Source of the DNA: Patescibacteria group bacterium
Lineage (GTDB): Bacteria > Patescibacteriota > UBA1384 > XYA2-FULL-43-10
Assembly: GCA_041674405.1 (NCBI GenBank)
Contig: JBAYVT010000004.1
Location: 10,599 to 74,598 of the forward strand
Length of the DNA stretch: 64,000 nucleotides
Direction of reading: 5' to 3'
Position 1 is the first letter of the stretch. Each line of letters opens with the position of its first letter. Made by a program: the position numbers and the translations under genes. The notes beneath the pieces were generated by a model. It had not been told where the DNA came from. It saw only the letters and a program-made list of their open reading frames with translations, and searched no databases. Below, piece by piece: positions 49,301-64,000 of this stretch.

Positions 49301-52300
49301 GTGGCTGCGCACTTTCTTGCGCTTGCATTATCATTGTTTAGGAGCCCCGAAGCGGTACCTTTTTGCAGATTGAGGCTAGAATCTAGAATTGAGCTGCCGA
49401 TTTTTGCGAATACGCTCTTTGAATTGCCGTTAAATATATTGAAGATATCGTCAGCGGTCAATCTTCCGGATCCTATTTGTGTTCCGATAGATTGGTTTAC
49501 AGAAGATGCGGCAAGCTTGTCGACTATGTTGTAGCCAGAAACCTTTAGGTAGTCGAGCGGGACTTGCCCACCGGAGCTATTTTTATTCTGCCTTGAAAAT
49601 ACCGCTTCGCTTTCTTCAGTCGAGATATTTAGCCCGAAGTCCAAAATCTTTTCAAATTGGATAAGATTAGCATCGCTAAATGGCTTGGACGATGTATTAT
49701 CAGAAACAAATGTGTCTAGGGCAGCTTTTATTTTATCAGCACTTCCATAATCCTTTAGGAAGTCTTTTGCCGCGGCAATTCCTTCGGCAGAAAATTGTGG
49801 CGGGAATGACCTAAAATAATTTTCGAGGTAAGAAGGAACTCCGCTGCCTGTTTGTGAAGCTCCTTTAGATATGTCCAAAGATAACAAATAAACTGCGTTT
49901 GCAATTTCGTCAGTATAATTTATTTTTTTATCATCGTTTGCGCTCTTGTATTCACTAGCAGCAGAATATGTGCTAAATATATGTTCGCCGGCTTTGTCGA
50001 AATACACGTAGCTATTGTCTGGTATGGTCGTGCCTGCGATATCGACATTTTGTATGGGCTGGCAGGGATTGTCAGGCGTTGCTGCTGCCATTAAGTAATT
50101 GTTGTGGTCGACGAAGTAAATTTGGTTAACCCCAGGATTGTCATTTCCTCCCTTGTGTGTCATAAACGCCTTAATCGCTGCTTCGGAAACATGCATTTTT
50201 GTTGCCAAAAGCCTGATAGTATCGCTGTCAGCTTCCGATTGGTCATATCCACCGATTTGTTGTCCGGTGATAAATTTCTCGGTCGTCCCGGCCGGCAGCT
50301 TGCTTTTCACGTCATTCGCAATCGCCTTGGAGCGAGCCGAAGACCACGCGCTGAAGCTGTTGTTCATAAGGTCATCAAGATCAAATCCCTTTAGTCCCAT
50401 GCCCGATGCAAGAATATTGTTTGCTTTGCTCCGGCTTATTTTCAATTTGTTTACCATGCCGTCACGAAGGTCTGCCAAAGATTTTGGTGACGACAGATCA
50501 GATCCTGTTAAAATTGAGCTTCCGGCAACTCCAGCTTGCTCCTCAAGAGCTGCTGAACCGATGGCACGGAAAAAAATGTCTTTGAAACTTTGGCTGTTCT
50601 TTGCTTGGTCATTGTTTTTTGCCAGAGCCAGTGCGTCCGAAGCATATTTTAGGGCCTTTGAAGAGATCCCCAAGCTGCCGCTTAGTTTAGCTGAGGCAGC
50701 GCCAGATACTAAATCTTGCAAAGTAGTTTTTCCGGACAGGAACGAAACCAGGTCTCCCAATCCAAGCTTGGAGCCACCCAGATCGATGGAGGAAAACTTA
50801 ATATCACTCAAGTGCAAATCTTCAATCTTAAAATCCGCCTGCTCGTTTCCAGTGGTGATCTCATATGCAGATTTTGTGATATCTTGTACATTCTGCATTA
50901 CGCCATTGAGCTGGTGCAGATAATCGGAAAATGTTCCGTCATTGCTTGAAAGGCCTTCGGAGAGATCTGTAGATCCGGAAAATACCGGGGAGCTTGCTTC
51001 GTTAATGATACTGCCAATCGCGATTGCGGCTGTTGTTGTGTCTCCGCCTCCCGGGTTTGCATCAGCCTTTTCGGCAGCGGTCGCGAACACAGACAAAGCC
51101 TGTTTTAGAGCGTCATCCTTTGCTTTTATTGTGCTATTTAATTTGTCTGATACTGCGCTTGAAGCAGACGTATAACTTTGTATTCGTTGATTTAGAGTGT
51201 TCAGTGTGGACTTAATGCCGTTGATTCGGTCGGTATAATATGCCTGATCGCGAACATTTTTATTTTCTAATACATTTGAATTGTTTGCTTCTTGTGTTTT
51301 TTTATCGTCATAGCCCGAAGTCTCAAGTGCTTGCCTTAAGTTTTTTTGCCCTATTTTTTTGAAAGTACCGGCCGGGTCTGATCCTATGCCAAATAAATTT
51401 GCGAAATCGATCTGGTTTATGCCAAGCCTTGAGGCATAGGTTTGCACCTGGATTTGTGCGGTCTGCAAAGACGGCTCCTCTGCTGTATTGGTGGGAACAT
51501 CTGTTGTAAATGTTGCATTTGGATTTTTAAACCAGTTGCTCAAATTTGTTCTTGATTGCTCGCCGTTTTCAAGAGCGCTCGATAGAGCAAAGATGCCAGC
51601 GTTCAATAACTGGTCCTGAGAAATTGTCCCCCCAAGAAAACTGGCCAGAGTGCCGGCAGGCAGATTAAAAATACTATCATTTTGGCCATATGAACCATTA
51701 AAGTTTTTGTATACATCCGCTCTTTTTGTGATGTAGCTTTCTGCAATTTGCTGTAGATAATTTGGAAGAGAAAGAACCCCGGCCTTAAGAGACGCTGTTG
51801 TTCCCGATCCCAAGCCGAAATCGGTATCGAGGGCACTTGGAAATGCGATTATGGTTGAAAGCTGGTTTTTTCCAATTGTAGAAAGCACATCATTAAGTCC
51901 GGATTTATTGAATGATCCCGAGGCAAGGCCAAATTGATTTTCAATTAATCTTGCTCCGATTTGGCTATATAGGCTTGGCTGATTCATTGACTGAACGTCG
52001 AAAACTCCCTCTGGCAGTGAAAGTTCTTGAATTATTCTCTCTCTTCCGATTTGGGCGAGAATATCGGCCCTGTTCTCGCCGGTGAGTGAGCCGTAGGGGA
52101 GGCCAAGGGCTTGTTCTATCCCGGCCCTACCCAGAGATTCTTCGAGGCCATCAATATTTAAGACCGAACCATCCATAAATGGGCCAGAAGGCAACGATAA
52201 GGCTTCTGCAATTATCGAGCCGCCGATTTGTTGTAACGTACCGGAAAGGTCAAGGTTCCAAAAATCTGAATCAGTTCCAGAGTTGATGGTATTGGCAAGA

Positions 52301-53667
52301 AATTGTTGGCCAACCAAGGTTAATACATCACTGAAACTATCTATGTTCATATTCTGTATATCAGAGAAATTCAGCCCGAGGCCAGATAGCATTTCAGTTA
52401 TCGAGTCCTGGGACATTCTCTGTATTGCCGTATTGAAACTGGAATCAATCGCTGCCTTGTCTTTATTGTATCCTTCGGATGTTTGCCACAAGAGCTTAAT
52501 GTTCATTGGAGGCTGGGGGATCTTGGTATCGCTGCCAATGCGGCGTTTTTTGATCAAGGTGCAGCGTATATCATCGATTTGCGAAATATCAAAAGCCTGC
52601 CCTGCATTATGCGCTGAAACTATCCGCGGGCTTTCATTGGTAATAATAAAATCTGAGATCGATTTCCCGTTATCATCAACGAGTTGCCCGCTTAAGAGGC
52701 TATCCTTTTGCTGAATTCCTGCTTCCGCTGCTAGTTCCCCAACGCCAGAATTGTCTTCCTGTGCCTTGTATTCCTCAATTGTTTGTTCTGATTCGGCTTT
52801 TTTCTCACTGTCTTTTTGTTCGGCCACCTCAGATTCCCTGGAGAATTTGGTTACATCGTTTGTATAACTATTTCTAATCTTATCAACCTGAATTCGCCAG
52901 TGCCCGGCACCTCCAATGGGGCTATTTTTTGGACGGACCAGATAATTGAGGGTATCAATAATCCGTTTATCAATTTTGGTATTTATAATACCTTCGACAG
53001 CGGAAACCACATATTGTTTTCCTGAATCATCCTGCATTTGTTGAATCATTGATTCTTGGTCAGTTTCAAATATCTGTGCAAGAATATTTGGGCTTGCGAG
53101 AAGACGCTGTGTTAGATATCCCTGCGTGAAATATTTTGCGGATGCGTTGTCAGCAAATTTTGAAAAGCCTTCCCAGTCACTTTCGCGCATTTGGTTTAGG
53201 CTGCTTATGTCTTTGCCGGTTAAGCGTGAAAGCTCAGACGCATCGCTTTTAAGGTCTGGGAGAACAGAATTGACCAAAGCAATATTTTCCAGATCTTTCT
53301 TGTCGCTTGGGTTTAGAATTATTTTGTCCGACAAAATCAAACCGGTTGAGCTCGCATTTTTATTAAGTGGTGCAGGCGCAACGTATTGGGTGACTGGGGC
53401 TGCATCAGTGTCTGGGGTGGCAATCAACTCATCGGCAGGGAGCGAATCATCAAAATTATCTGTTGCCGGTCCGCTTGCGGGAACTGTATCTTTAGCAGAT
53501 TCTCCGGAGTAATCAGCATCTGACCCAACCTGGTCATTTCCTGAATTAGCATATTGATCCTCTTCGAGTGCCTGCACAATCATGGGTTGGTATGGCAACA
53601 TTACCGAAGTTATGATTACAATCGGTATTACTAGAAAAGAAAACAATTTTATAAATTTATTTGTCAT
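46378..53667 (-). CDS. Giant secreted or surface protein (2429 aa) with no recognised catalytic domain and a recurrent G-[LF]-P-x-G-[TS] motif
   Basis: N-terminal signal/TM MTNKFIKLFSFLVIPIVIITSV. A single uninterrupted frame. Motifs LGLPYGSLTG, LSLPEGVF, LSLPSGPF, LGLPAGSLKSG, LGLPDGTTV, AGLPEGTMA, GLAPGTLS and FGLPPGTSQ recur along the length. Confidence 0.7.
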   Translation of the reverse strand: MTNKFIKLFSFLVIPIVIITSVMLPYQPMIVQALEEDQYANSGNDQVGSDADYSGESAKDTVPASGPATDNFDDSLPADELIATPDTDAAPVTQYVAPAPLNKNASSTGLILSDKIILNPSDKKDLENIALVNSVLPDLKSDASELSRLTGKDISSLNQMRESDWEGFSKFADNASAKYFTQGYLTQRLLASPNILAQIFETDQESMIQQMQDDSGKQYVVSAVEGIINTKIDKRIIDTLNYLVRPKNSPIGGAGHWRIQVDKIRNSYTNDVTKFSRESEVAEQKDSEKKAESEQTIEEYKAQEDNSGVGELAAEAGIQQKDSLLSGQLVDDNGKSISDFIITNESPRIVSAHNAGQAFDISQIDDIRCTLIKKRRIGSDTKIPQPPMNIKLLWQTSEGYNKDKAAIDSSFNTAIQRMSQDSITEMLSGLGLNFSDIQNMNIDSFSDVLTLVGQQFLANTINSGTDSDFWNLDLSGTLQQIGGSIIAEALSLPSGPFMDGSVLNIDGLEESLGRAGIEQALGLPYGSLTGENRADILAQIGRERIIQELSLPEGVFDVQSMNQPSLYSQIGARLIENQFGLASGSFNKSGLNDVLSTIGKNQLSTIIAFPSALDTDFGLGSGTTASLKAGVLSLPNYLQQIAESYITKRADVYKNFNGSYGQNDSIFNLPAGTLASFLGGTISQDQLLNAGIFALSSALENGEQSRTNLSNWFKNPNATFTTDVPTNTAEEPSLQTAQIQVQTYASRLGINQIDFANLFGIGSDPAGTFKKIGQKNLRQALETSGYDDKKTQEANNSNVLENKNVRDQAYYTDRINGIKSTLNTLNQRIQSYTSASSAVSDKLNSTIKAKDDALKQALSVFATAAEKADANPGGGDTTTAAIAIGSIINEASSPVFSGSTDLSEGLSSNDGTFSDYLHQLNGVMQNVQDITKSAYEITTGNEQADFKIEDLHLSDIKFSSIDLGGSKLGLGDLVSFLSGKTTLQDLVSGAASAKLSGSLGISSKALKYASDALALAKNNDQAKNSQSFKDIFFRAIGSAALEEQAGVAGSSILTGSDLSSPKSLADLRDGMVNKLKISRSKANNILASGMGLKGFDLDDLMNNSFSAWSSARSKAIANDVKSKLPAGTTEKFITGQQIGGYDQSEADSDTIRLLATKMHVSEAAIKAFMTHKGGNDNPGVNQIYFVDHNNYLMAAATPDNPCQPIQNVDIAGTTIPDNSYVYFDKAGEHIFSTYSAASEYKSANDDKKINYTDEIANAVYLLSLDISKGASQTGSGVPSYLENYFRSFPPQFSAEGIAAAKDFLKDYGSADKIKAALDTFVSDNTSSKPFSDANLIQFEKILDFGLNISTEESEAVFSRQNKNSSGGQVPLDYLKVSGYNIVDKLAASSVNQSIGTQIGSGRLTADDIFNIFNGNSKSVFAKIGSSILDSSLNLQKGTASGLLNNDNASARKCAATQISTNLIGNSIGTGNLDLASLFTGSSVGSNKAESLLGLPAGSLKSGNILGVAKNVGVVKFAEAFQIPVSQEEISVVNAELKSMGENFFNVNAGNSFYQKLNSVVTYYQALGTNWTGVNDALQKTIDSLVSKGSTGGFNSDTIATLFSQNEPSWNNFVGRLSFLDRNLGLPDGTTVKLLASPTAGSLGEIFPINQYVRQVTDAATQNNLISGLIKGLGLQDGSDRQITDGDINNLITWIKDPGDNMGDLYGTLNNIFSWNLDKKAGLPEGTMATILQDPQTTFNRLISFGAEAFDSSLGLTSVFKTLILGNPDIRCGLSIFGGSGDTESCLKSTIGGQLNTLVGDAFKDLQVNFTIKDIAGNLEYSLKNLLNMDGFDSSTFQQILYGDFRPIQLLGAVMNIPQMYSGKDGLPFNLGIFETYDNAINALNSFKFNFSDLTRLVYGDLTQEIAVRLAAEQQRWNQLTNSSYNWTIAAGNATFNVSTGILSDSTTSSNLGPPNGIINIGLNFPGASDTSSAPILNLQVDNGLRITAGIDTGAAIDSLLNVRIGNTRALDVLNAGQAAIDFATNIWSQGVEYKSIDLALHRLDPNIPADFARSMFQGNDWTRTTTLLEYAEGLIRNDLGIDFLPGGFLGTLQNFISDPNSFDFKSALNGLLGSATADGTLVNTIDNYITGKAASIFGVDFGQGTFGGILGFLQTGSLEGALSIAGNKLQSLADIYGGPSFALNFVGGFVDKTFGLPPGTSQNLYNLYQNFKQAEQAFAASGGSGASGANLANAKAAAISYAARLVLGDTLAKWDEQLGLAPGTLSLLLDATISFLYGNWIQAAIDVAIILYNNLFGVYKVEYLCTADGYYPSIESPPSPDIVDNGNLGVWNGIDSKTRERKIIEAAQYKANKFIQNLYDMPSSTDDQKLVPTQVMTGRWEDVNAWSALTSDTICKNVTGGGQTNGLCNGTKAGMWANPQTTAYTHVGF

Positions 53668-54670
53668 GAAGGGCCCATAGTCCTTTTATAAGTCCGCTAT
53701 TTAATTCGCTGGCAGGCGAATATCTGGCCGGCCGGCCGCGCGACGCTTCGGCTGAAGGATCGTTCAGTACTAAGAATTTGTCGTCTTTGCTCACTCCGAT
53801 AATTACAACCCAGTGTTGGCCGGTAGCCCGAAAGGCTGTAATACCTTGTGCTAAAATTGGATTTCCAGCGGCAATCTCTTTTTTGACCGAGTCTAAATTT
53901 CGAGGGACCTGTGCGAGCTCTTTGTTTAACCCTTTACTGTTTATGTAGCTGACCCAAGTAGCCTTGTCGAGCGCCATGCTGTGGTTTGTGTCAGCCAAAT
54001 ACTGGCCTAAAATATAGGGGGTTATTCCGGAAACTCCATAATAATTTGCAATCATTGCGGATGATGTAATTGCACACGCAGCACCTGCATACGAATTACG
54101 TTTACTGCTCCATCCTGCTGCTTGGCCAGGTTTGTCTCCCCATCTGGGATCGCCTTGATTGAAATACCATTTTGTCGGATCTCCAGGAACCGTTATTGAG
54201 TTGCCAAGAACTTGTTTTATATCGGCGGCATCAGCCTCGCTATAAACCGAAGCATCGATTGGCTGAGATTTTCCATCCATTCCACGATTTGATCCTGACA
54301 TTCTGCCAAAGGCAGGGACGGTTATGAAAAATATTAGGAGAATGACAATGGCAATTGTGGTTAATGTCGGCCAGTTTGCGATCAAAAATGTTTTCAAAAA
54401 ATTTTTGGTCGCGAATTTTAGTGCTTTGTTCGATAAATTATCCAGCGCTTTGCCAATAACCGGTAGTCTCTTTGCTGCCTCCCACGCTCCGCCAGTTGCT
54501 GCATCAAGCGCCTTGTCTTTGCCTGCATCGATTGCTTTATTAAGGACCTTGTTGCCGGTAACGCCGGAACCAGAACCGGATTTTGCCGCCGTTATGGCCG
54601 AGCCTCTCTCGTTTGGGCGCGGAGCCTCTGATTGTCCATCTAAATTTTCGTTATTAAATTCTTCTGGCAT
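53657..54670 (-). CDS. Membrane-anchored papain-like cysteine peptidase (Peptidase_C39_2-like), candidate cell-wall hydrolase
   Basis: Cytoplasmic N-terminus, one TM (WPTLTTIAIVILLIFFITVPAF), then YFNQGDPRWGDKPG...YAGAACAITSSAMIANYYG with a candidate catalytic Cys. Start taken at MPEEF. Confidence 0.55.
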   Translation of the reverse strand: MPEEFNNENLDGQSEAPRPNERGSAITAAKSGSGSGVTGNKVLNKAIDAGKDKALDAATGGAWEAAKRLPVIGKALDNLSNKALKFATKNFLKTFLIANWPTLTTIAIVILLIFFITVPAFGRMSGSNRGMDGKSQPIDASVYSEADAADIKQVLGNSITVPGDPTKWYFNQGDPRWGDKPGQAAGWSSKRNSYAGAACAITSSAMIANYYGVSGITPYILGQYLADTNHSMALDKATWVSYINSKGLNKELAQVPRNLDSVKKEIAAGNPILAQGITAFRATGQHWVVIIGVSKDDKFLVLNDPSAEASRGRPARYSPASELNSGLIKGLWALHDK

Positions 54671-54672
54671 AT

Positions 54673-55821
54673 TTAGCTCCAATTTCCTCCATATTGAAAA
54701 TGCATTGCGTCGCATACTCCCTTAAATTTTGCTCCCCAAAAAAACCCGTTTTTTTCAAAAGCATCTGAAACAGCTTTGGGAATATCATGGGGGCACCCTG
54801 CTGGGTCACGAGGCCTTCCGGATCGTCTTCCATTGGGATTTTGGCCTGGATTAATATCACATGCTGCGCCAGTTGAGTGTGGGCTAAGAAGGCTGGGGCT
54901 ATTCACATTGTGCCTCCAGTTATAACATCCAATATCTTTGATCTTGTATGTTGATCCACTACTTTTGATATCATTTACAACATTTTGGAGGGCAGGAACT
55001 ATATACTTATTTACTCGAATTGAGTGGCCGAGAAAATTGAAATTAACTAGCTGCTTTTCTACTTCATTTTGTGTTTTTGAATGAAGAGCAGACTGAGCCT
55101 GTGATAATGACTTCCAGATTCCCACCTGTCCACTGCTTCCCGGACCATAACCACGAAAGTCTAAAGATCCGGAGACAAAATTATTAACTGGATTGGGGCT
55201 GGAACATTGTATTTGCCCAGGAACCAATTGTTTTAGAAAAGTGAAAAATATTTCCCTGTCTTCCGAGACATTATTTCTTGAATCAGATTCCGGCGTATAT
55301 GCATCGATCCACCAAGTTTGAATCGCGGTTCCGGCAGGGCGATTTCCATAAGGCGCAACATTATCTCGTGCTTTTGTCAGGGTTTTTACATGTTTTGTGA
55401 GCTGGTCCTCGAAGGATGTGCTACCAGGAGCGACGCCAAACGCATAGCTTGGTTTGCCAAAGTTTTGCTCCTTGCCCCATGTGGCGATTGCTACAGCCGG
55501 ATTTACACCAGCGGCCCTTGTGGCCTGAAGGATCTGATCAATACGCTCCTTGGAAGGCATGATACTTCTTCCGCCGAGTTTGGAGATTACAGAAGCAGAA
55601 TCTGGAATTTCAGATGTGGAAGGACTTGTCCAGTTCTGATCTGGCATAACACATTCACCACCACCCCCCATAGCCAAGGGGGTTTCACCGGTGTTTTTGC
55701 GCATTGTTGCAAATGTCATGCCAGCAGCTGTGCCGGCGACGAGGAATGTCAAAACTGCGCTGATTCCAATTGCAATCACCACATTTCCTCCGGATCGTGA
55801 ATTTAATTTGGCTCCCTCCAT
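54673..55821 (-). CDS. Membrane-anchored peptidoglycan hydrolase with a C-terminal M15 (VanY-like) zinc peptidase domain
   Basis: N-terminal TM. SPHSTGAACDI (SxHxxGxAxD) and FFWGAKFKGVCDAMHFQY at the C-terminus are typical of M15 D,D-peptidases. Confidence 0.6.
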   Translation of the reverse strand: MEGAKLNSRSGGNVVIAIGISAVLTFLVAGTAAGMTFATMRKNTGETPLAMGGGGECVMPDQNWTSPSTSEIPDSASVISKLGGRSIMPSKERIDQILQATRAAGVNPAVAIATWGKEQNFGKPSYAFGVAPGSTSFEDQLTKHVKTLTKARDNVAPYGNRPAGTAIQTWWIDAYTPESDSRNNVSEDREIFFTFLKQLVPGQIQCSSPNPVNNFVSGSLDFRGYGPGSSGQVGIWKSLSQAQSALHSKTQNEVEKQLVNFNFLGHSIRVNKYIVPALQNVVNDIKSSGSTYKIKDIGCYNWRHNVNSPSLLSPHSTGAACDINPGQNPNGRRSGRPRDPAGCPHDIPKAVSDAFEKNGFFWGAKFKGVCDAMHFQYGGNWS

Positions 55822-55832
55822 TTATCCCTCGC

Positions 55833-57104
55833 CTACAAACCTGTTTGATACAAATGGTTATTCGAAACAAAGTATAGAGTTTTGTTGTCCTTCGAAATCG
55901 AAAGTTCTGTAATATATACGCCCGAAAGTGGAATCGAGAAACCGATTTTTTGTTTAGAATCTACATTAAATTTAAACAAACTTTCTTGCTGTGTCTCCGG
56001 GTCATAGGTAGCGACGGCGATATTGGAATTATCAATCCAAACAATTTTGGAGATTATCGCTTTTATTCCAAGATCTCTGGCGTTTGATCCGTCGCTATTC
56101 ATAACGGATACCTCTGATTTAACTGGATTTGAAGGGTCATCCGAGGTGGTTGTGTAGATAATTTTATTACCATCTGGCGAATATAAGGCTTCTTGGTTGT
56201 TGCCAGTGTCGGTAATATTTTTTACAGCCATCGTGTAAGCATTCAAAAGATAAATTTTGTTGCCGCTTGCATCGGTATTGCGTGGGATAATAAGCAGCCA
56301 TTCTGACGAAGGCGACCATCTAAGATATGGGTTTGTAATGCCGTAATCTTTTAGGTTGAGGGCACGTTTGATGTTTGTGTTTGCCTTGTCCGCGAAAATG
56401 ATTGATTGTTCGCCCGAAGATGGGGCATATGAATAAGCAATCTTGGAATCGTCTGGTGCCCAGGCGACATTACCGATATCGTCCCCAAATTTAACTTCCT
56501 GTTGGCTGACAAAATTATATTTTTGAAAATCAAAAAAGTATGCGGCGCTTCCTTTCTGAAAGAGGGCAGCATCTTTCTTGGGTCCCCAGACAATATTCGT
56601 AATTCCGGAAAAACCAGGATTTGATATCTGTCTTACATAGTCTACACTGCGGTCAGATTTGAACTGGATTTTGTAAAGTGCTGATTTGCCGCTTCCTAGA
56701 AACATAAGCGAGTCATCTTCATCACCGGTTGTGATATTATCTACCGGCAAATCTTTAATGTTACCAAGTGGCAGGACAATCGGTTTTGGTACCTCGACAA
56801 GATCAACTTGCACAGATTTACTGCGCCCGCCACTCAGAGTCAAATTCATAATTTGCGTTACGTATCCGTTTTTCTTGACAGTCAGAACATGATCGCCGGG
56901 TTTTGTGGTAATCTTGGCCGTGCCGTCAGGCAGGGTGCTTACAGGGGCGCTGTCAAGCAAAATGTTGGCGTCTTGCGGGGTAAATTTGACCGACAGAGTA
57001 GATCGGTTCAGGAGAATTATTAGGACCACCGCTGCAACCACTAAAATTCCCAAAAGCAGATACGCTTTTGATCTTAAAAAATTCATTTCGTCTGTGATTT
57101 TCAT
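55833..57104 (-). CDS. Membrane-anchored TolB-like beta-propeller protein with a PEGA-like domain
   Basis: A TM helix, then LTVKKNGYVTQIMNLTLSGG (PEGA-like) and repeated ...SPDG/KIAY... propeller blades. The start, taken at MKITDE, abuts the VirB4 stop. Confidence 0.5.
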   Translation of the reverse strand: MKITDEMNFLRSKAYLLLGILVVAAVVLIILLNRSTLSVKFTPQDANILLDSAPVSTLPDGTAKITTKPGDHVLTVKKNGYVTQIMNLTLSGGRSKSVQVDLVEVPKPIVLPLGNIKDLPVDNITTGDEDDSLMFLGSGKSALYKIQFKSDRSVDYVRQISNPGFSGITNIVWGPKKDAALFQKGSAAYFFDFQKYNFVSQQEVKFGDDIGNVAWAPDDSKIAYSYAPSSGEQSIIFADKANTNIKRALNLKDYGITNPYLRWSPSSEWLLIIPRNTDASGNKIYLLNAYTMAVKNITDTGNNQEALYSPDGNKIIYTTTSDDPSNPVKSEVSVMNSDGSNARDLGIKAIISKIVWIDNSNIAVATYDPETQQESLFKFNVDSKQKIGFSIPLSGVYITELSISKDNKTLYFVSNNHLYQTGL

Positions 57105-57105
57105 A

Positions 57106-58965
57106 TTATTCTCCCAATAATTGTTTCGGATCCGTGGTGATGATTTGATCTTCGGCATATGATGCAACAATTTTTATGGCGACATGGTTTAAACCGGCGA
57201 AAAACAATCCTTCGCCTACATCCGATTGCAATAGAATATATTTTTCCCCCTCCGTAAGGCCGAAAGTCTCTGCGATTACATCGATTGACGAAGTGGATTG
57301 CTTCATGAGCATCTGCATAGAAGAGTTGGCAACCACTGCTTTTCCATATCTTGAACCTAAGAAATCTTCCACATCTTGGCTGATCACGGTAACTCCAAGG
57401 TAGTATTTGCGCGCCCGTTTTACTAAGCCGTGTAAGAATTTGGCAGAATCTTCGTATTGCATCATCCACCAAGCTTCATCAATAACCATCAAGCGGCGGC
57501 GCATATCCATGCGGATTTTGGTCCAGATATAATTTAATATCAGATACATCGCGATCGGCCGAAGTTGCTCTTCGAGATCGCGGACCGAAAACACCACAAA
57601 ACCAGGCTTGAGTTCAAAGTTGGTAGTCTGGTTGAACATGCCAGCAAACGTGCCTTCGGTATATTTAGACAACCGCGCCCTCAAAGACTCGCTGCTGCCC
57701 ATATTGGACAGAACATTGTAGAAATCTTGCATCACTGGCGGCTCATTTTTTTGGCTCTCTGGGTCGGTAGTAATGTCTTTGATCGCATATGTCTCATACA
57801 AACCCTTATCTACCAGAGCGTCTTCTTCTGGGGAAAGTCCACCAACCATAAGATTGATGAGTCCGTGCAACGAAGAGATGGTTGACCTTAGAACATCATC
57901 TCCCGATTCTTCTCCTGATTCGGAATGGGGAAGATCAAAAGGGTTAATGCGATGCTCGGCATTTAAAGAAATGCTTAGATAACTGCCCCCGACGGCCTCA
58001 CAGAGCGACTTATATTCATTTTCTGGGTCAACTACGACCACATCTGTTCCCGACATCAAATAGCGCAAAATTTCAAGCTTAACTGCGTAAGATTTACCAG
58101 AGCCGGACTTTGCAAAAACCACTGAATTGGCATTTTCCAGATCAAATCTGTCAAAAATTATCAAAGAATTATTGTGGCGATTGATCCCGTACAATATTCC
58201 GTCATCCTGGGTAAGCTCAGTAGATGTAAACGGGAAGGTTGATGAGAGTGATCCAGTATCAAGGTTGCGAAGAACACCGATTTCATCAGTCATCAGAGGA
58301 AGGGTGGTGTTGAAACCCTGTTCCATCTGCAGGAGTGTTTGTTTGGAGTAAACTAGCATGCCGCCGAGAGTAGATTCAAGCTGTTCTGTCAGGGTGTTGA
58401 GATCGTCTGGGGTTTTTCCATAAATTGTGAAATATAATCCGAACTGGAACAACCTCATCTCACCTCGTTGTAACACGTCACGCAAGGACTCAACATCTCC
58501 TAGTGCTGTTTCCATTTCCGGATCTCTTGGGGCACCCTTCTCTTGCTCGATCATCATCGTTGACTCAAGTTTTCCGACTTGTTTTTTAAGGTCATACATG
58601 ACATCTTTTGACTCGAGCGGGTGAATATACATCCCAATATCCATCGTAAGATCATAATCAATGATTGGGGAAAGCCAATTTGTATCTAGGTAACGCGGAT
58701 AGGTAAATACGAATAAAGTTTTGATAAAATACTCACCCAGTTGCAGATAATTCGGTGTCACAACAAAAGCTGCCGGAGCGATGAGGTCACGCACCGAAGA
58801 TAATCCCTGCGATACGGCATCGATTGTTTGGTCGGTTGCCTTATCGGCCCAGAATTTAGGATCCGAAGCTTGTTTTTCTCGCTTTGCAATGTTTTTTTGG
58901 GCAAGAGCTCTTGGGTCCTGGGTTGCTATTTGTTTTTGATCGTTATCAGCCATTTTACCAGCCAA
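57106..58965 (-). CDS. VirB4/TraE/PrgJ-family type IV secretion ATPase (body and ATPase domain)
   Basis: VVFAKSGSGKSYAV Walker A, LMVIDEAWWMM Walker B, and the upstream VTPNYLQLGEYFIKTLFVFTYPRYLDTNWLSPII region typical of Gram-positive VirB4 homologs. Confidence 0.8.
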   Translation of the reverse strand: MAGKMADNDQKQIATQDPRALAQKNIAKREKQASDPKFWADKATDQTIDAVSQGLSSVRDLIAPAAFVVTPNYLQLGEYFIKTLFVFTYPRYLDTNWLSPIIDYDLTMDIGMYIHPLESKDVMYDLKKQVGKLESTMMIEQEKGAPRDPEMETALGDVESLRDVLQRGEMRLFQFGLYFTIYGKTPDDLNTLTEQLESTLGGMLVYSKQTLLQMEQGFNTTLPLMTDEIGVLRNLDTGSLSSTFPFTSTELTQDDGILYGINRHNNSLIIFDRFDLENANSVVFAKSGSGKSYAVKLEILRYLMSGTDVVVVDPENEYKSLCEAVGGSYLSISLNAEHRINPFDLPHSESGEESGDDVLRSTISSLHGLINLMVGGLSPEEDALVDKGLYETYAIKDITTDPESQKNEPPVMQDFYNVLSNMGSSESLRARLSKYTEGTFAGMFNQTTNFELKPGFVVFSVRDLEEQLRPIAMYLILNYIWTKIRMDMRRRLMVIDEAWWMMQYEDSAKFLHGLVKRARKYYLGVTVISQDVEDFLGSRYGKAVVANSSMQMLMKQSTSSIDVIAETFGLTEGEKYILLQSDVGEGLFFAGLNHVAIKIVASYAEDQIITTDPKQLLGE

Positions 58966-60064
58966 AATCTTTATTTAATGCAGGATCGCTATCTGGATCA
59001 TTTGTGGCTTTCGGGTTCACTGGTGGATTGTTAGGTTGGGGAGGTGTTTGCCTGTTCTGTGGCGGTTCATTAATACTTGTGCCGGATTCTTGTGATTGCG
59101 CTTTAGTTTGGGTTTCCGCAGTCTGGCTTTGTGGTGTGGCCGGCTTCTCTTGCGCCTCTGCTGCCGGTGGAGCCGGTGCGGTGCTCGGTGCGTTGGAAGA
59201 ATTTGTGTTTGCGGATACCGTATTGTTTGAAGTCGTCGGCGCTTTCATGTCTCTTTCTGCGTTTTTTTCTATCGCCTGTTGTCTTTCTTCCTGTTCCTTT
59301 TTCTGCTGGGCATTAACTATTTCTGTGTTATCGATTGTAGATTCATCTTCAATCTGGCTGGGCTCGAGAGCCTCGTCTTCTTTGTCTTTTGTGTGTGTAA
59401 CAAAAGCTGAGGCGAAAGTATTTGCTTCTTCTGCAAGCCTTTCCTTGCCGGCAACCTCGGGATTGTACGTGCTGTAAAGAAGCTCAATCACTTCTTGTGT
59501 ATTTAGTTGCTTGCAATGTAATCCGATCGAGCCGAGGCCCTGGGCGACGGTAGTAGCGCGCTGCTTTAATTCGGTTGTGTATCGGGCATAGTCTTCTTCG
59601 GAAACCCTGAGCTGGGCAGTTTCATTATTCTTTTTGAAAAGCTTATCCAATATTCCGCCGTTATTTGTGACCAATGGCTGATAACCGACGGTTACGTAAA
59701 AAGTTTTTTTCATAATATTGGCTAGGTTGATAAGCTGAGAGACGAAGTCGACATAATCTTCTGTTTGCAACTTCAAAAGCTCGTTTTTCTGTTTTTCCGC
59801 CAATTTCTTAATCTTGTTTAAATATGGGGTCAAATCCAGTTTTTTTGATGAAATCAAAATCTCAATCGGAAAATGAAGCGAATTTAAGAAGCTTTGGTAA
59901 TTAAAAATAATGCTATTTTGCTCTTGCTCGCTCTTTAAGTCGAAATTTATAGCAGCAACAGACATGACAATGCGGTATTGCCCGTTTCTCAGAATAACTA
60001 TCCCGTCGCGAATGCCTGCGACCAAAACGTTTTCTTGGGTTGTGGGAGCTTTGACGGTAGCCAT
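58955..60064 (-). CDS. T4SS-associated protein resembling the N-terminal domain of VirB4 (about 230 aa) followed by a Pro/Gln/Thr-rich disordered tail; possibly the 5' part of a split or frameshifted virB4
   Basis: GIRDGIVILRNGQYRIVMSVAAINFDLKSEQEQNSIIFNYQSFLNSLHFPIEILISSKKLDLTPYL fits the VirB4 N-terminal pattern. It overlaps the ATPase ORF by 11 nt in another frame. Confidence 0.45.
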   Translation of the reverse strand: MATVKAPTTQENVLVAGIRDGIVILRNGQYRIVMSVAAINFDLKSEQEQNSIIFNYQSFLNSLHFPIEILISSKKLDLTPYLNKIKKLAEKQKNELLKLQTEDYVDFVSQLINLANIMKKTFYVTVGYQPLVTNNGGILDKLFKKNNETAQLRVSEEDYARYTTELKQRATTVAQGLGSIGLHCKQLNTQEVIELLYSTYNPEVAGKERLAEEANTFASAFVTHTKDKEDEALEPSQIEDESTIDNTEIVNAQQKKEQEERQQAIEKNAERDMKAPTTSNNTVSANTNSSNAPSTAPAPPAAEAQEKPATPQSQTAETQTKAQSQESGTSINEPPQNRQTPPQPNNPPVNPKATNDPDSDPALNKDFGW

Positions 60065-60066
60065 GC

Positions 60067-60516
60067 TTACCTCGTTGCAATATTATTATTTGAAGAATCC
60101 AGCGATTTTGCCATTCTTTCCATCTGCTCGCGGGTTATGTGTTTGGATTCGACATGCGTAGCCGATTCCTTTTCTGGATTTTTGTAAACTTCCACGTCAA
60201 ACCCTGATTCTTCTCTTTGCCAAACGCGCATCCTTGGTTTGCCCATAAAAACAAACAAAGAAGCAAGAAAATGCAAAAAAGGCCGTTCGTTAATTTTAAG
60301 AAATATCAGAGCCAATGTAAAAAGTGCAACCATTATAGCTAAAAACAAGCCAAACATGTTTGGTATCGACATATAGCAGACATACGCCAATCCGCCGCCA
60401 ACGACAGCATAGACAAACTGAAGCATTGTCAGCGGTCCCAAAATGCGATCCTGCATATCTATATTTTGCGGAACCTTGTAACGCAATTTCCCTCGCTCCC
60501 TCCTTTTGGAGTTCAA
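60067..60516 (-). CDS. PrgI-family (VirB3-like) small membrane protein
   Basis: YKVPQNIDMQDRILGPLTMLQFVYAVVGGGLAYVCY followed by a second TM helix, the defining PrgI pattern. It sits directly upstream of virB4, as in Gram-positive conjugation loci. Confidence 0.65.
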   Translation of the reverse strand: MNSKRRERGKLRYKVPQNIDMQDRILGPLTMLQFVYAVVGGGLAYVCYMSIPNMFGLFLAIMVALFTLALIFLKINERPFLHFLASLFVFMGKPRMRVWQREESGFDVEVYKNPEKESATHVESKHITREQMERMAKSLDSSNNNIATR

Positions 60517-60586: not shown

Positions 60587-62077
60587 TTATTCTATCGGTG
60601 AAAGAATGTTCGTTTCATTGGCAAGAGCGCCGAGAAATGCACCGCCAACTGCTAGCAGGCCCGTGCTAGATGCCTGGGATTCCGGAGTTGGATTTTGTTT
60701 GTCGAAACCGCCCCAGCCATCATAATATCCCATTGAATCCAAATCCAGCCCATCAAAATCTTCGCCTAAATGGCCTTTTTCTGATTGGACGATTCTCTTT
60801 ATGGTGTTATAAAAAACTAAGTACGATTCGATTGCGCGGGAGATCCCGGGATGTTCCGTCCTTAACTTTTCTATTGAAAAATTTCCGCCGGCGATACCTT
60901 CGGCAATTTCGGCATATTTTGTACTAATTTCTCCTGATTGATCTGTATCCGATTCACTAATGCCGAGTTCTGAACTGGAGAAACGGCTGAAACTGCCGGG
61001 ATCGAGCTTTTTAAGGCATACCTCTAAAAAGCTCAAGAAGCTTCCATCGCTCTGGAGATAAATGGCAGTGTAATCGGTTACAATTTCTTCTGCTGCCATG
61101 ATTTCGCGCGACTTTGTGAACTTTTCTTCCGACCCCCATTTTGCTTTTTCTGTCGGTGAGAGTGAATTATATTCCGATTTTTCCAAGCTCTTAATCACGT
61201 TTCTGACGTGTTGCGGCTGAAAATCAATATAATCTTTTGCATTTCGAATGATTTCTTTTGCCTCTCTAAGCGAAATCTCGATCGGAGAATTGGCATTTTC
61301 TTCATCTGCTTCGGATTCTTTGTGTTTTGCGACAGCGACTATTCCGTGGGATATCTCGTGGTCGATCATTTGAACAAAATCCAAGCTCAGGATTTTTCCT
61401 TCGGAAGTTGCAAAATTATCTTTCAGGGCAGATCTCGAGAGTTTGATAACCCCTCCCCCAAAAGACATAATCCCTTCATAACCAGCCGAGGCTCGAGATT
61501 CGTCCTCTAAACTATCGGATATTTCAACATTTTGAACGAGTGTACAGACATCATTAGCGGTAAGGTGCCCATTGATTATCGGGAGAGATAGGGCATAAAG
61601 GATCTCTGTTTTTTTACTCAATACTCCCGAATACTCAGGGTTTTTTGATAACTCGGAAATAGCGGCATCTGAATCTTGAAACAGCGCTTCTGAACGTGCG
61701 ATAAAAATCGCCGTCTCAGTGAGAGCGCTACTAGATGGCGCAGACTCTCCGTATCGCTCTTTTAATATCGCATAAATTTTTTCAATCAGGTAAGAATTCA
61801 GATTTTCGTCCGATATATGATTGAGGAGAATTGCAAAAACTTCTCTCTTGTCCAGGGAGTGGCTTTTATTTTCGTGAGTCATTCTTTTCGTTGCTTCGAG
61901 AATAGAGGGACGATTCTGCTCGGTAATTTCAACTTCACCGGAATGATCTATCTCCGGTTCTGCCCCTTCCTGGCCTTCGTTGCCCCCTTCTGGTTGTTCT
62001 CTTGTTTGATCCGCTTCCGAAATTTCTGGCGATTGTCCAGGTGGGCCAGCAGAAGGGTTTGGGGCGTCAGTGGCCAT
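60587..62077 (-). CDS. Hypothetical protein with an HExxH motif (candidate zinc metallopeptidase), an acidic low-complexity N-terminus and a hydrophobic C-terminal segment
   Basis: MIDHEISHGIV contains HEISH; no signal peptide; the C-terminus TGLLAVGGAFLGALA is hydrophobic. Confidence 0.45.
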   Translation of the reverse strand: MATDAPNPSAGPPGQSPEISEADQTREQPEGGNEGQEGAEPEIDHSGEVEITEQNRPSILEATKRMTHENKSHSLDKREVFAILLNHISDENLNSYLIEKIYAILKERYGESAPSSSALTETAIFIARSEALFQDSDAAISELSKNPEYSGVLSKKTEILYALSLPIINGHLTANDVCTLVQNVEISDSLEDESRASAGYEGIMSFGGGVIKLSRSALKDNFATSEGKILSLDFVQMIDHEISHGIVAVAKHKESEADEENANSPIEISLREAKEIIRNAKDYIDFQPQHVRNVIKSLEKSEYNSLSPTEKAKWGSEEKFTKSREIMAAEEIVTDYTAIYLQSDGSFLSFLEVCLKKLDPGSFSRFSSSELGISESDTDQSGEISTKYAEIAEGIAGGNFSIEKLRTEHPGISRAIESYLVFYNTIKRIVQSEKGHLGEDFDGLDLDSMGYYDGWGGFDKQNPTPESQASSTGLLAVGGAFLGALANETNILSPIE

Positions 62078-62108: not shown

Positions 62109-63992
62109 TTATTCGGGATTTGCGCTTGGTGGTTCTGCGGGGGGAGTCGGAGGGGGAGTCGGTGTTGAATGGGTCTCAGGGCGTGGGGTAGACGGCGCCT
62201 CTACGGTAGTATTGTTGTTGATCACAGTTGTGTTCTGAACTGGGTTTGGCCGAACCGCATCAACGGCCCTTGCAGGTGATACGCGTGAAGATGCTTTTGC
62301 TGTGGCGCTGCCGATTTCGCGAGCAAGAGATTTTTGGAATCTTTCACTCATTAGTGTTGATGCGAGCGAATCCCCGCCGGAAACCCCCGAAGCAGCGGCA
62401 ACGCTTCCCAGGATGGAACTTGCCTGCATCGGTGAGTACGAAACAGCTGCTCCTCCTCGAGCTGCAGCGGTGGCTTGTGCAACCTGGTTCACATGTTGGG
62501 TCAACGCTTCGATATGATCGGAACCTTCGGCAAAGCCATCGCCAACCGAAATATTCTCAAATTGAGAAGCTAATTGCTTGGTTTGGTCGGCCATGCTCTG
62601 CATCGATAATCTGGCGGAGGCAGTAGCTTCGGCAGCAGTTCTTAGTTCGGTCTGTTTGGAAGTCTGAAATTGTTTAAGAGAGTCTGACCAGGCTCGCCCT
62701 TCTGTTGAAGTCAGTTGTCCGGAAGCAGCCATTGATCTTGCGTTTACGGCTGCCTGCTGAACCTGTTGAAACGTTGAAGCTAACTTTTGTTTGGCGGCGG
62801 GATCGCTCGTGCTAATTTTGGGTACTCCCATCTTACTAGCAATTTTGGCCGCCTCTTCAATATCACCAGCCTGAAGCTTGCTTGCGCCTGCGGCAGCATC
62901 CTGAGAAATCAATGCCAGCTTAGACCCTAGACCTTGTGGGGAAACACCGCTCATTTGGCCACGGATTAGCCTCAAACCTGCAATTTGGTCTTCGATTTGT
63001 TGGGCTCCTGCTTCAACCTCTTCGTTAACCATGGAATCACGAGCCTTCCTAACATCTTCAAAGTGTTTTCGGAGTTCTTGTTGCGCTCCAGGACTCATTG
63101 CAGCAACATCACCACCCAATCTTTGAGCCAGTTGGTCAAAATTTTCATTGCTGTGCATTGCGGCACGAGAGACCTGATCAGCCTGTGCACCAGCAAGAGC
63201 CCTAATTCCCTGGCTTGCACCGCTGATAGATGCAGCTTCTGTAGTAGCTTGGGCAGCTGCCTCAATTTCTTCACCAACAGGAGAAGAAAATCCGGAAGCA
63301 TCCATGTTTCTGTTTCTTTTTCGCAAAGCTCCGGTTGTAGGATCTCTGGACTCGTCGGTTCGGAATCTCCCTTTTTCTTTACTTACAGCATCAATACTTT
63401 CCCCATTAAAAAATTTCAAGGCTTCATCATGTCCGTCGGCACTGGAATTTCCAGCCCTTCTGGTAAGTTCCTTATACTTCGCCATATATTCCCTTGATTG
63501 CGCCCAACTCATCTTTTTGTCTCTAAATAATTTTCCGTTTTTTCCTGGAGTTGCAACTTCGCCTGTTTCAGGATCGATCTCCATCGCTCCGGCCAACTTA
63601 GAAACTTCTTCATATTGCCAGGTTTTTTGTTCATCGAGAGAATCAGCCCTTAATGCGGCCCTTACTCGACCCTGGGCTCCCTTTGGCAATTTTCCGCTCA
63701 TCATAAGATCAAAGTACCTCTGGTTGAGTGCCTCTTTCTCGTACTTAGCTCTCACGTCCTGCGGAATTTGCTTAGCGGCTTTTCTATTCATCATCATCTT
63801 ACCCAAACGAGTCAGCTGAAAATCTCCTTTTTTATCATGATATCCGATCATCCTGTTCTGGGCTCTGGTTTTGACATTGTCATATTTTTCCTTCGCAAAA
63901 TCACCGGCGTATTTGGCAGCCCGACCGCCTGTCTTATTCCATCCCCATTTGCCAAGGTTGTTCCATGCTGTCATCACGCCTTTACCCATCAT
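62109..63992 (-). CDS. Ala/Gln-rich predicted coiled-coil protein with a Pro/Thr-rich C-terminal tail; the N-terminus may extend beyond the window
   Basis: 627 aa of AQ-rich heptad-like sequence, with no TM and no catalytic motifs. The first Met lies 8 nt from the window end. Confidence 0.45.
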   Translation of the reverse strand: MMGKGVMTAWNNLGKWGWNKTGGRAAKYAGDFAKEKYDNVKTRAQNRMIGYHDKKGDFQLTRLGKMMMNRKAAKQIPQDVRAKYEKEALNQRYFDLMMSGKLPKGAQGRVRAALRADSLDEQKTWQYEEVSKLAGAMEIDPETGEVATPGKNGKLFRDKKMSWAQSREYMAKYKELTRRAGNSSADGHDEALKFFNGESIDAVSKEKGRFRTDESRDPTTGALRKRNRNMDASGFSSPVGEEIEAAAQATTEAASISGASQGIRALAGAQADQVSRAAMHSNENFDQLAQRLGGDVAAMSPGAQQELRKHFEDVRKARDSMVNEEVEAGAQQIEDQIAGLRLIRGQMSGVSPQGLGSKLALISQDAAAGASKLQAGDIEEAAKIASKMGVPKISTSDPAAKQKLASTFQQVQQAAVNARSMAASGQLTSTEGRAWSDSLKQFQTSKQTELRTAAEATASARLSMQSMADQTKQLASQFENISVGDGFAEGSDHIEALTQHVNQVAQATAAARGGAAVSYSPMQASSILGSVAAASGVSGGDSLASTLMSERFQKSLAREIGSATAKASSRVSPARAVDAVRPNPVQNTTVINNNTTVEAPSTPRPETHSTPTPPPTPPAEPPSANPE

Positions 63993-64000
63993 TTGTGGAG

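Follow-up and report, generated by a model that had tools for sequence, protein, structure and literature searches.

We examined a 64,000-nucleotide (nt) stretch of DNA from a Patescibacteria group bacterium (contig JBAYVT010000004.1, positions 10,599 to 74,598; hereafter the window), in which a type IV secretion system (T4SS) operon on the minus strand encodes, next to each other, a TrsD-like protein of 369 amino acids (aa) and a VirB4 ATPase (genes and proteins hereafter referred to as A and B, respectively). In the direction of transcription, the operon carries genes for a VirB6/TrbL-like protein, a 496-aa protein, a PrgI/VirB3-like protein, A, B, a beta-propeller protein, peptidases and a 2,429-aa protein, with a stop-to-start spacing of 1–2 nt at the three junctions that were read (PrgI–A, A–B and B–propeller). 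Gene calls of the source record refer to ENA ERZ27247358, a 158-kb contig (locus label L089). As listed, the open reading frames (ORFs) of A and B span 58955..60064 (369 aa, ATG start) and 57106..58965 (619 aa, TTG start), both on the minus strand (as are all features described below unless stated otherwise), which agrees with the coordinates in the initial annotation, a reading of the letters of the window that took the pair for a VirB4 split into an N-terminal-domain ORF and an ATPase ORF. The analyses described here indicate that A and B are very probably two genuine genes, each translated on its own, whose products jointly constitute a single VirB4, the core ATPase of a T4SS of the monoderm type in this Patescibacteria (candidate phyla radiation (CPR)) genome.

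Protein A (58955..60064) is 100% identical to WC080_03275, a protein of an NCBI Patescibacteria metagenome-assembled genome, and is predicted from homology and from its AlphaFold2 (AF2) fold to combine the first half of a VirB4 N-terminal domain with a long tail. The folded domain comprises residues 1–215 (59420..60064), with a confident core at residues 10–205, as delimited by AF2, Foldseek, NCBIfam and BLASTP against fused VirB4s. In the AF2 model, the predicted local distance difference test (pLDDT) score was 85–97 in most 10-residue blocks and lower at residues 111–120 and 131–150. A Foldseek search of the PDB with this model returned TrwK/VirB4 chains of the R388 T4SS as all of the top 14 matches and nothing else of significance; a sequence search of the PDB with A gave a chance match to HicB only (E = 0.97). 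At the family level, A matched the NCBIfam TrsD/TraD model NF041427 over profile positions 13–200 of 201 (34.3 bits, E = 2.1e-8), and PF26593.2 (‘TraC-like’) is listed in the precomputed annotation for the protein identical to A and for all 120 close homologues. A has the marks of a TrsD-type protein—a stand-alone domain of ~200 aa that is homologous to the VirB4 N terminus, with a gene that immediately precedes that of a short VirB4.

Protein B (57106..58953; 615 aa plus stop) is a short VirB4 ATPase without the first N-terminal sub-domain, recognized by NF045971, Pfam P-loop_TraG and PDB 4ag5. It scored 358.5 bits against NF045971 (CD1110 VirB4-like; cut-off, 325 bits) over profile positions 176–733 of 752 and 111 bits against P-loop_TraG (E = 6e-32; cut-off, 25.8 bits). 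An N-terminal leader (residues 1–49; 58807..58953), which consists of a short low-complexity start and then the conserved motif DPRALAQKNIAKRE...FW, is followed by the second half of the VirB4 N-terminal domain (residues 50–246; 58216..58806), as placed by alignments to fused VirB4s and by TIGR00929, and by the RecA-like C-terminal ATPase domain (residues 247–606; 57136..58215), which in a phmmer search matched the crystal structure of the VirB4 C-terminal domain of T. pseudethanolicus (4ag5, E = 1.5e-46). The latter domain contains a Walker A motif/P-loop (AKSGSGKS, residues 281–288; 58090..58113), located by alignments, and a Walker B motif (LMVIDEAW, residues 488–495; 57469..57492), read from the sequence. 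The 120 closest relatives of B are all short (582–722 aa) and share 73–91% identity with it. A motif related to that of the leader (DPxDIAAQQ..RE) is also present in short-tailed Saccharibacteria. A complete N-terminal domain of ~400 aa is not found on the same polypeptide as the ATPase (which would give ~800 aa in total), and at the sequence level B does not conceal a complete first sub-domain.

In alignments, A and B tile a single VirB4. On the CD1110 VirB4 profile (752 positions), A covers 11–121 and B covers 176–733; on the VirB4_plasma profile (894 positions), the corresponding ranges are 126–304 and 292–893; and the TIGR00929 match of B begins at profile position 238 of 792. In BLASTP alignments with a fused 831-aa VirB4 of Bacillus mycoides, residues 33–201 of A correspond to 51–198 (E = 4e-13) and residues 50–611 of B to 239–818 (E = 3e-83), with residues 50–246 of B falling on 239 to ~435. 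Likewise, on a fused 898-aa Patescibacteria VirB4 (P0378), residues 9–212 of A align with 14–219 (36% identity) and residues 39–613 of B with 315–890 (58% identity). Judged by these alignments, A supplies the first ~200 residues of the N-terminal domain and B the rest of VirB4. The tiling that the initial annotation had suggested as a check is thus borne out on the NCBIfam profiles and on both the Bacillus and the Patescibacteria fused VirB4s; profiles, BLASTP and Foldseek agree that the 369-aa protein is a VirB4 N terminus and not a member of an unrelated family, and the 619-aa ORF alone is not a complete VirB4, given that it covers 176–733 of the 752 profile positions and 239–818 of the 831 residues. 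The proposed division into an N-terminal-domain ORF and an ATPase ORF held in part: the VirB4 body and the Walker motifs are indeed in B, but the break does not coincide with the domain boundary. The N-terminal domain of R388 VirB4 comprises residues 15–400 (PMC9259494) and B keeps its second half, so the break lies inside the N-terminal domain rather than between this domain and the ATPase.

The two-gene arrangement is conserved. A collection with one genome per species contained at least 503 matched stretches that code for a relative of A, and from it we fetched 80 loci from the genomes of different species and measured the A–B spacing with a first-ATG heuristic. Both halves were present in 76 of the 80 loci, of which 75 were split and one was fused. 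The split loci displayed all three frame relations (offsets 0, 1 and 2) and spacings of about −35 to +464 nt, and in five of the 80 loci the interval between the halves could accommodate a further gene; a fixed frame relation with a conserved slippery site, as would mark programmed frameshifting, was not found among the homologous loci. At the protein level, the homologues of A form 404 clusters, with stand-alone proteins (272–383 aa) throughout the best 120, and an exhaustive search of 1.8 billion representatives yielded 2,343 relatives (50%-identity representatives), with 149 of the best 150 shorter than 480 aa and hence unfused. The arrangement therefore occurs in hundreds of genomes, which excludes chance, and the gene order PrgI, A, B, propeller and peptidase is kept in relatives. 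Given that the split is conserved while frame, spacing and intervening genes vary, a sequencing error, a recent pseudogene and a programmed frameshift are effectively excluded. The initial annotation had listed a frameshift or sequencing error near 58955–58965 among its options, which does not survive the finding of 75 split loci in 76 with varied frame and spacing, and had called a genuine split unusual, whereas it is the rule in Patescibacteria and has been published as TrsD plus VirB4. Conservation and tiling support its remaining option, namely that VirB4 is genuinely divided between two genes and that the break carries a disordered region.

Several of the loci sampled have further peculiarities at the break. 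On the contig of one of the five loci with room for an extra gene (L001 7115–7474; L002 4536–4895), a 119-aa gene is called between the TrsD-like and VirB4 genes, and its product belongs to the bAvd/23S-rRNA-intervening-sequence family of four-helix bundles (PF05635 and PF22296). L010, L024, L034 and L037 have A–B gaps of 414–464 nt, seen as spacing only. In the Saccharibacteria loci L038, L041, L042 and L074, the halves share one frame and the stop is immediately followed by ATG, which leaves them one codon from a fused gene.

The junction between A and B (58951..58965) reads ...GGC TGG TAA A ATG GCT GAT AAC, with an ATG (58953) 1 nt past the TAA of A (58957–58955); in the frame of B, it reads TTG GCT GGT AAA ATG, with ATG 58953 as the likely start and TTG 58965 as the alternative. 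The ATG is favoured by the N termini of homologues (~120 homologous ATPases start with M-[A/P/N]-D-Q..., and B of the window, read from this ATG, starts with MADNDQ), by the gene call of the source record (615 aa, starting 1 nt after A) and by the downstream junction of the same form (TAA-T-ATG). Most likely, B starts at ATG 58953 and is 615 aa long, with a 1-nt spacer (TAA-A-ATG) and without overlap with A. The 11-nt overlap of the two ORFs given in the initial annotation results from the longest-ORF convention, in which TTG 58965 is taken as the start; it exists only from this codon and is probably a start-codon artefact. A second assembly (Logan SRR6484325), possibly made from the same reads, shows no base difference at the junction. 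On the plus strand, a 197-aa ORF (58884–59477) lies opposite the low-complexity tail of A; most likely, it is not a gene but a shadow ORF that arises from the biased sequence.

The tail of A (~155 aa) consists of a short low-confidence linker, a charged helix, a Pro/Ala/Thr/Asn-rich stretch and a C-terminal tip. Residues 216–274 are charged (19% Glu) and include a predicted α-helix (residues 247–274; 59243..59326; AF2 pLDDT of ~90) that is just preceded by D245 of an ‘IDN’ motif; D245 is invariant in the alignment of A homologues, and the motif is found in 17 of 25 long-tailed relatives. The last 95 residues (275–369) are of low complexity (P, 18%; A, 14%; T, 13%; N, 13%; S, 11%; Q, 9%), and the Pro/Ala/Thr/Asn/Ser/Gln-rich segment at residues 275–359 (58988..59242) is predicted to be disordered (pLDDT of 45–56). 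The tail described in the initial annotation, roughly 140 aa long and Pro/Gln/Thr-rich, is therefore present, but it is longer than stated, is of low complexity at residues 275–369 only and is led in composition by Pro, Ala, Thr and Asn. The C-terminal tip DPALNKDFGW (residues 360–369; 58958..58987) ends in a [YF]-G-x-COOH motif that is conserved in homologue clusters: the pattern [YF]G.$ was found in 56 of 120 clusters versus ~0.08 expected from tail composition, the 56 being phylogenetically related and not 56 independent events. Aromatic residues in the tails of A homologues gather at positions −3 and −1, and the tip is conserved amid divergent tails (for example, NKDYGW, NQNYGQ, NNNFGS and GNGFGS among homologues P0002–P0120). 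The length of the tail is lineage-specific (57–168 aa in the 120 closest clusters and ~25 aa in most Saccharibacteria loci sampled).

Three distant TrsD-like proteins (P0313, P0330 and P0340) have a Gln/Pro/Ala-rich low-complexity region of 140–225 aa at the N terminus instead, and P0340 alone among them combines this region with a short C-terminal tail rich in Asn/Thr/Pro; a disordered appendage has therefore been acquired at either end. We considered a PrgI–TrsD fusion for the three proteins and rejected it, as the extensions are of low complexity and without Pfam match. A zipper, in which the helix in the tail of A would pair with the leader motif of B (DPRAxAQxNIxxRE), is not supported by co-occurrence, given that a leader-like DPxDIAAQQ..RE is present in Saccharibacteria with a TrsD tail of ~25 aa that has no helix.

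Fused forms also occur. At least 65 clusters of 850–910-aa proteins with TraC-like and P-loop domains were found in Berkelbacteria and unclassified Patescibacteria, and these proteins have a disordered Pro/Ala/Gly-rich linker of ~100 aa at the break point (pLDDT of ~30 over residues 214–313 of P0378). This fused clade includes the closed Berkelbacteria genome CP066695.1, in which the ORF (L088 2029–4749) encodes 906 aa and the called product has 582 aa (P0451); similarly, a fused ORF of ~870 aa (L077 3953–6577) is annotated short as P0455 (public records of 578–582 aa for the two). In both records, a stretch of ~950 nt that codes for the TraC-like domain and linker has no annotation. We rejected recent fission as the origin of the short VirB4s P0451 and P0455, which are mis-called starts of continuous ORFs. 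In a neighbour-joining tree of the ATPase part, calculated without bootstrap, the fused forms make up one clade nested among split Patescibacteria forms, and the nearest outgroup, from Clostridium perfringens pJFP838A, is also split. This topology suggests that the split may be ancestral and the fusion secondary.

How else could the two genes be explained? They abut in different frames, and related bacteria with a fused VirB4 gene of ~900 aa are known, as would fit a single VirB4 that was broken by a sequencing or assembly error or by a recent frameshift, leaving an artefact or pseudogene. The probability of such an origin is negligible: 75 of the 76 species-level loci are split with variable spacings and frames, a conserved C-terminal motif stands directly ahead of the stop of A, the homologues of B share an M-x-D-Q start, the junction is the same in the second assembly (although this may derive from the same reads) and B, at 73–91% identity to its relatives, does not resemble a pseudogene product. 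Programmed frameshifting or stop read-through, by which some full-length VirB4 would be made, is hardly more credible. The frame of B is open for only ~20 nt upstream of the stop of A, in the A/T-rich AAAGATTTTGGCTGGTAAAATG, and the four Saccharibacteria loci mentioned above have in-frame halves with a single stop in between, both of which could accommodate recoding; however, no conserved slippery site was found, offsets of 0, 1 and 2 occur with gaps of −35 to +464 nt, five loci have an unrelated gene, or room for one, between the halves, and the conserved C-terminal tip indicates a free C terminus.

A weightier, although still improbable, explanation is that A is an independent accessory factor that arose as a diverged paralogue of the VirB4 N terminus and acts, for example, as a hub or adaptor through its tail. 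It would account for the much faster evolution of A (45–62% identity versus 73–91% for B), for lineage-specific additions on stand-alone relatives (a hydrophobic N-terminal segment resembling a transmembrane helix in C. perfringens and apparent membrane segments in Haloplanus), for the low-complexity tails or N-terminal extensions of CPR relatives and for a tail with a conserved helix and C-terminal tip. Yet B is truncated in complement, lacking exactly the region that A supplies, and the fused forms place the A domain collinearly ahead of B; moreover, an accessory role and a role as one half of VirB4 are not mutually exclusive. Some observations also weigh against the reading of A and B as two genes for one VirB4. 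There is no obvious Shine–Dalgarno sequence upstream of either candidate start of B. The 34 bits of A are well under the NF041427 cut-off of 200, which makes it a distant relative of the plasmid prototype, homologous to but outside that plasmid subfamily, and a local Pfam scan of A found no family even at an E value of 10, PF26593 coming from the precomputed annotation only, apparently because the model is missing from the local copy of Pfam. The contact between A and B is a matter of inference, and the AF2 model of the fused P0378 (mean pLDDT of 64; predicted template modelling score of 0.43) is too poor to judge domain packing; Foldseek aligned this model to TrwK over ~950 columns, close to the full length of either protein, with a root mean square deviation of 30 Å, and we draw no conclusion on packing from a low-confidence model with such a deviation.

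If A and B together make one VirB4, they would be co-translated from the tightly packed operon, and the two halves would be reunited by non-covalent contacts at the membrane, together with PrgI. The N-terminal domain, with its first half from A, would dock VirB3/PrgI and form VirB4–VirB4 contacts, as can be extrapolated from the R388 structure, in which VirB3 wraps the N-terminal domain of VirB4 and the N-terminal domains form the VirB4 dimer interface (PMC9259494). B would form a RecA-like hexameric ATPase ring. The position that is taken by the linker in fused relatives is occupied here by the long tail of A together with the B leader.

The C-terminal tip of A has the appearance of a short linear motif attached through a flexible tether. 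A disordered linker with a conserved C-terminal tip is also found in the single-stranded DNA-binding protein SSB (C-terminal tip), in FtsZ (C-terminal peptide) and in TraD of the F plasmid, the tail of which binds TraM. Like these proteins, A proceeds from a folded domain through a variable low-complexity linker to a short conserved C-terminal peptide ending in aromatics, but it has no homology to them; the likeness is an analogy and serves as a lead for the role of the tail. As a tentative and on balance doubtful proposal, the clade of the window may have gained a tethered docking module, composed of the helix, an entropic spacer of ~95 aa and the [YF]-G-x tip, with the tip recruiting a cytoplasmic partner (coupling protein, substrate or ATPase ring) to the T4SS; the split would then free a C terminus for this module instead of being a neutral fission. 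Recruitment of a partner by the tail of A is speculative.

Upstream of A, the VirB6/TrbL-like channel protein is represented by its C-terminal part (62109..64000; ORF inside the window, 62109..63992), as the gene starts beyond the window edge; in the source record, it is a 904-aa gene with a match to PF19590 TrbL_3 (L089 5242–7956), whereas the portion inside the window gave no match in a local Pfam scan. A tyrosine-integrase gene lies ~4 kb upstream of it, outside the window (L089 181–1251), adjoined by PAP2 and BacA genes. Between the VirB6-like and PrgI genes, a 496-aa protein of no recognized family is encoded (60587..62077; no Pfam match); L003 has a 465-aa gene in the same position, the likeness being one of position and size alone. 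The PrgI/VirB3-like small membrane protein (60067..60486; 139 aa in the gene call of the source record) matched PF12666 PrgI (E = 1.3e-9, 38.9 bits versus a cut-off of 27), and its stop is 2 nt ahead of the ATG of A (GAGG TAA GC ATG). The context is that of a VirB4 gene, with PrgI immediately upstream of the pair, the TrbL_3 gene two genes further upstream and the same layout in relatives.

Downstream of B, the gene for a PEGA/PD40 beta-propeller protein (55833..57104; 423 aa), with an N-terminal hydrophobic stretch that by eye resembles a membrane anchor, has its ATG 1 nt past the VirB4 stop. A gene of this type always directly followed VirB4 in the relatives examined (429–430 aa in L001–L004), and its product may be a conserved, unnamed T4SS component. 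The next gene encodes a D-Ala-D-Ala carboxypeptidase-like peptidase (M15_4; 54673..55821; Pfam E = 6.7e-15), which is syntenic in relatives and is likely a cell-wall-remodelling partner of the T4SS; essential peptidase and lysozyme homologues have been reported downstream of virB4 (PMC12102498). It is followed by a papain-like C39/C70 peptidase (53657..54670; 337 aa in the gene call of the source record) that has a counterpart in the same position in L003. After the T4SS operon and peptidases comes the 2,429-aa ORF (46378–53667; no Pfam match), the product of which may be a surface protein or a T4SS effector; L003 has a giant 2,444-aa gene at the matching position. Compared with the MPF-FATA-like gene set of Patescibacteria (PMC12102498), the set here is complete, with VirB4, TrsD, PrgI/VirB3, VirB6-like and cell-wall hydrolase genes.

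The two-gene VirB4 arrangement is already known and is the phylum-wide norm in Patescibacteria. Quinonero-Coronel et al. (2025, Microb Genom) described TrsD, with pGO1 as the prototype, as remotely homologous to the N-terminal portion of VirB4 and found that no other T4SS component is as abundant in Patescibacteria; its 2,272 homologues include 1,664 that are associated with virB4 (PMC12102498), and the protein was left without an assigned function. The same paper cites Wang et al. (2023) for a TrsD homologue that is essential in Ca. Southlakia epibionticum ML1, and T4SS genes including this homologue are reported to be essential for epibiotic growth in the one cultivated model (PMC12102498). 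A term search of its main text found no mention of a complementary VirB4 truncation, of the fused clade or of the tail, and the tail and C-terminal tip of A appear to be undescribed in the sources consulted. Our finding in the window thus re-identifies a published phylum-wide arrangement, and what is possibly new is the tail with its conserved C-terminal tip. A motor made of two polypeptides matters for annotation, as the small gene is usually labelled ‘hypothetical’ and, the start given for the fused gene is too late in at least two checked records of Berkelbacteria; it is also relevant to structural work on these machines.

Among known systems, the TrsD plus VirB4 pair of other Patescibacteria (PMC12102498) does not differ in any essential respect from that of the window, as it shares the phylum, the gene pair and the PrgI/VirB3, VirB6-like and peptidase neighbours. 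Gram-positive plasmids with TrsD/TraD and TrsE/TraE (pGO1 subclass of MPF-FATA, NF041427) likewise have a stand-alone homologue of the VirB4 N terminus of ~200 aa, but, compared with this plasmid TrsD/TraD (a 201-position model), A carries an extra tail of ~155 aa and lies among chromosomal-type rather than plasmid genes. The genera named in the output of a tblastn search of a plasmid collection did not include Staphylococcus (a further 29 genera were not itemized), and TrsD of pGO1/pSK41 was not among the leading matches; the link to pGO1/pSK41 is therefore drawn from the literature and from the NCBIfam profile. On plasmids, A was instead matched best by C. perfringens pJFP838A (32% identity) and by haloarchaeal loci (24% identity). 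The former encodes PrgI, a 312-aa protein and a 641-aa DUF87 ATPase, with the same split and the same PrgI-first order as in the window, and the haloarchaeal plasmid loci have the same split in the form of a 552-aa protein and a 768-aa DUF87 protein; the small proteins of both have, by eye, transmembrane-like segments in place of the low-complexity tail of A. Fused VirB4s (TrwK of R388, PDB 7o41/8rtb; the CD1110 family; Bacillus; Berkelbacteria) contain the same domains in the same order on a single chain, whereas in the window they are distributed over two polypeptides, with the break inside the N-terminal domain.

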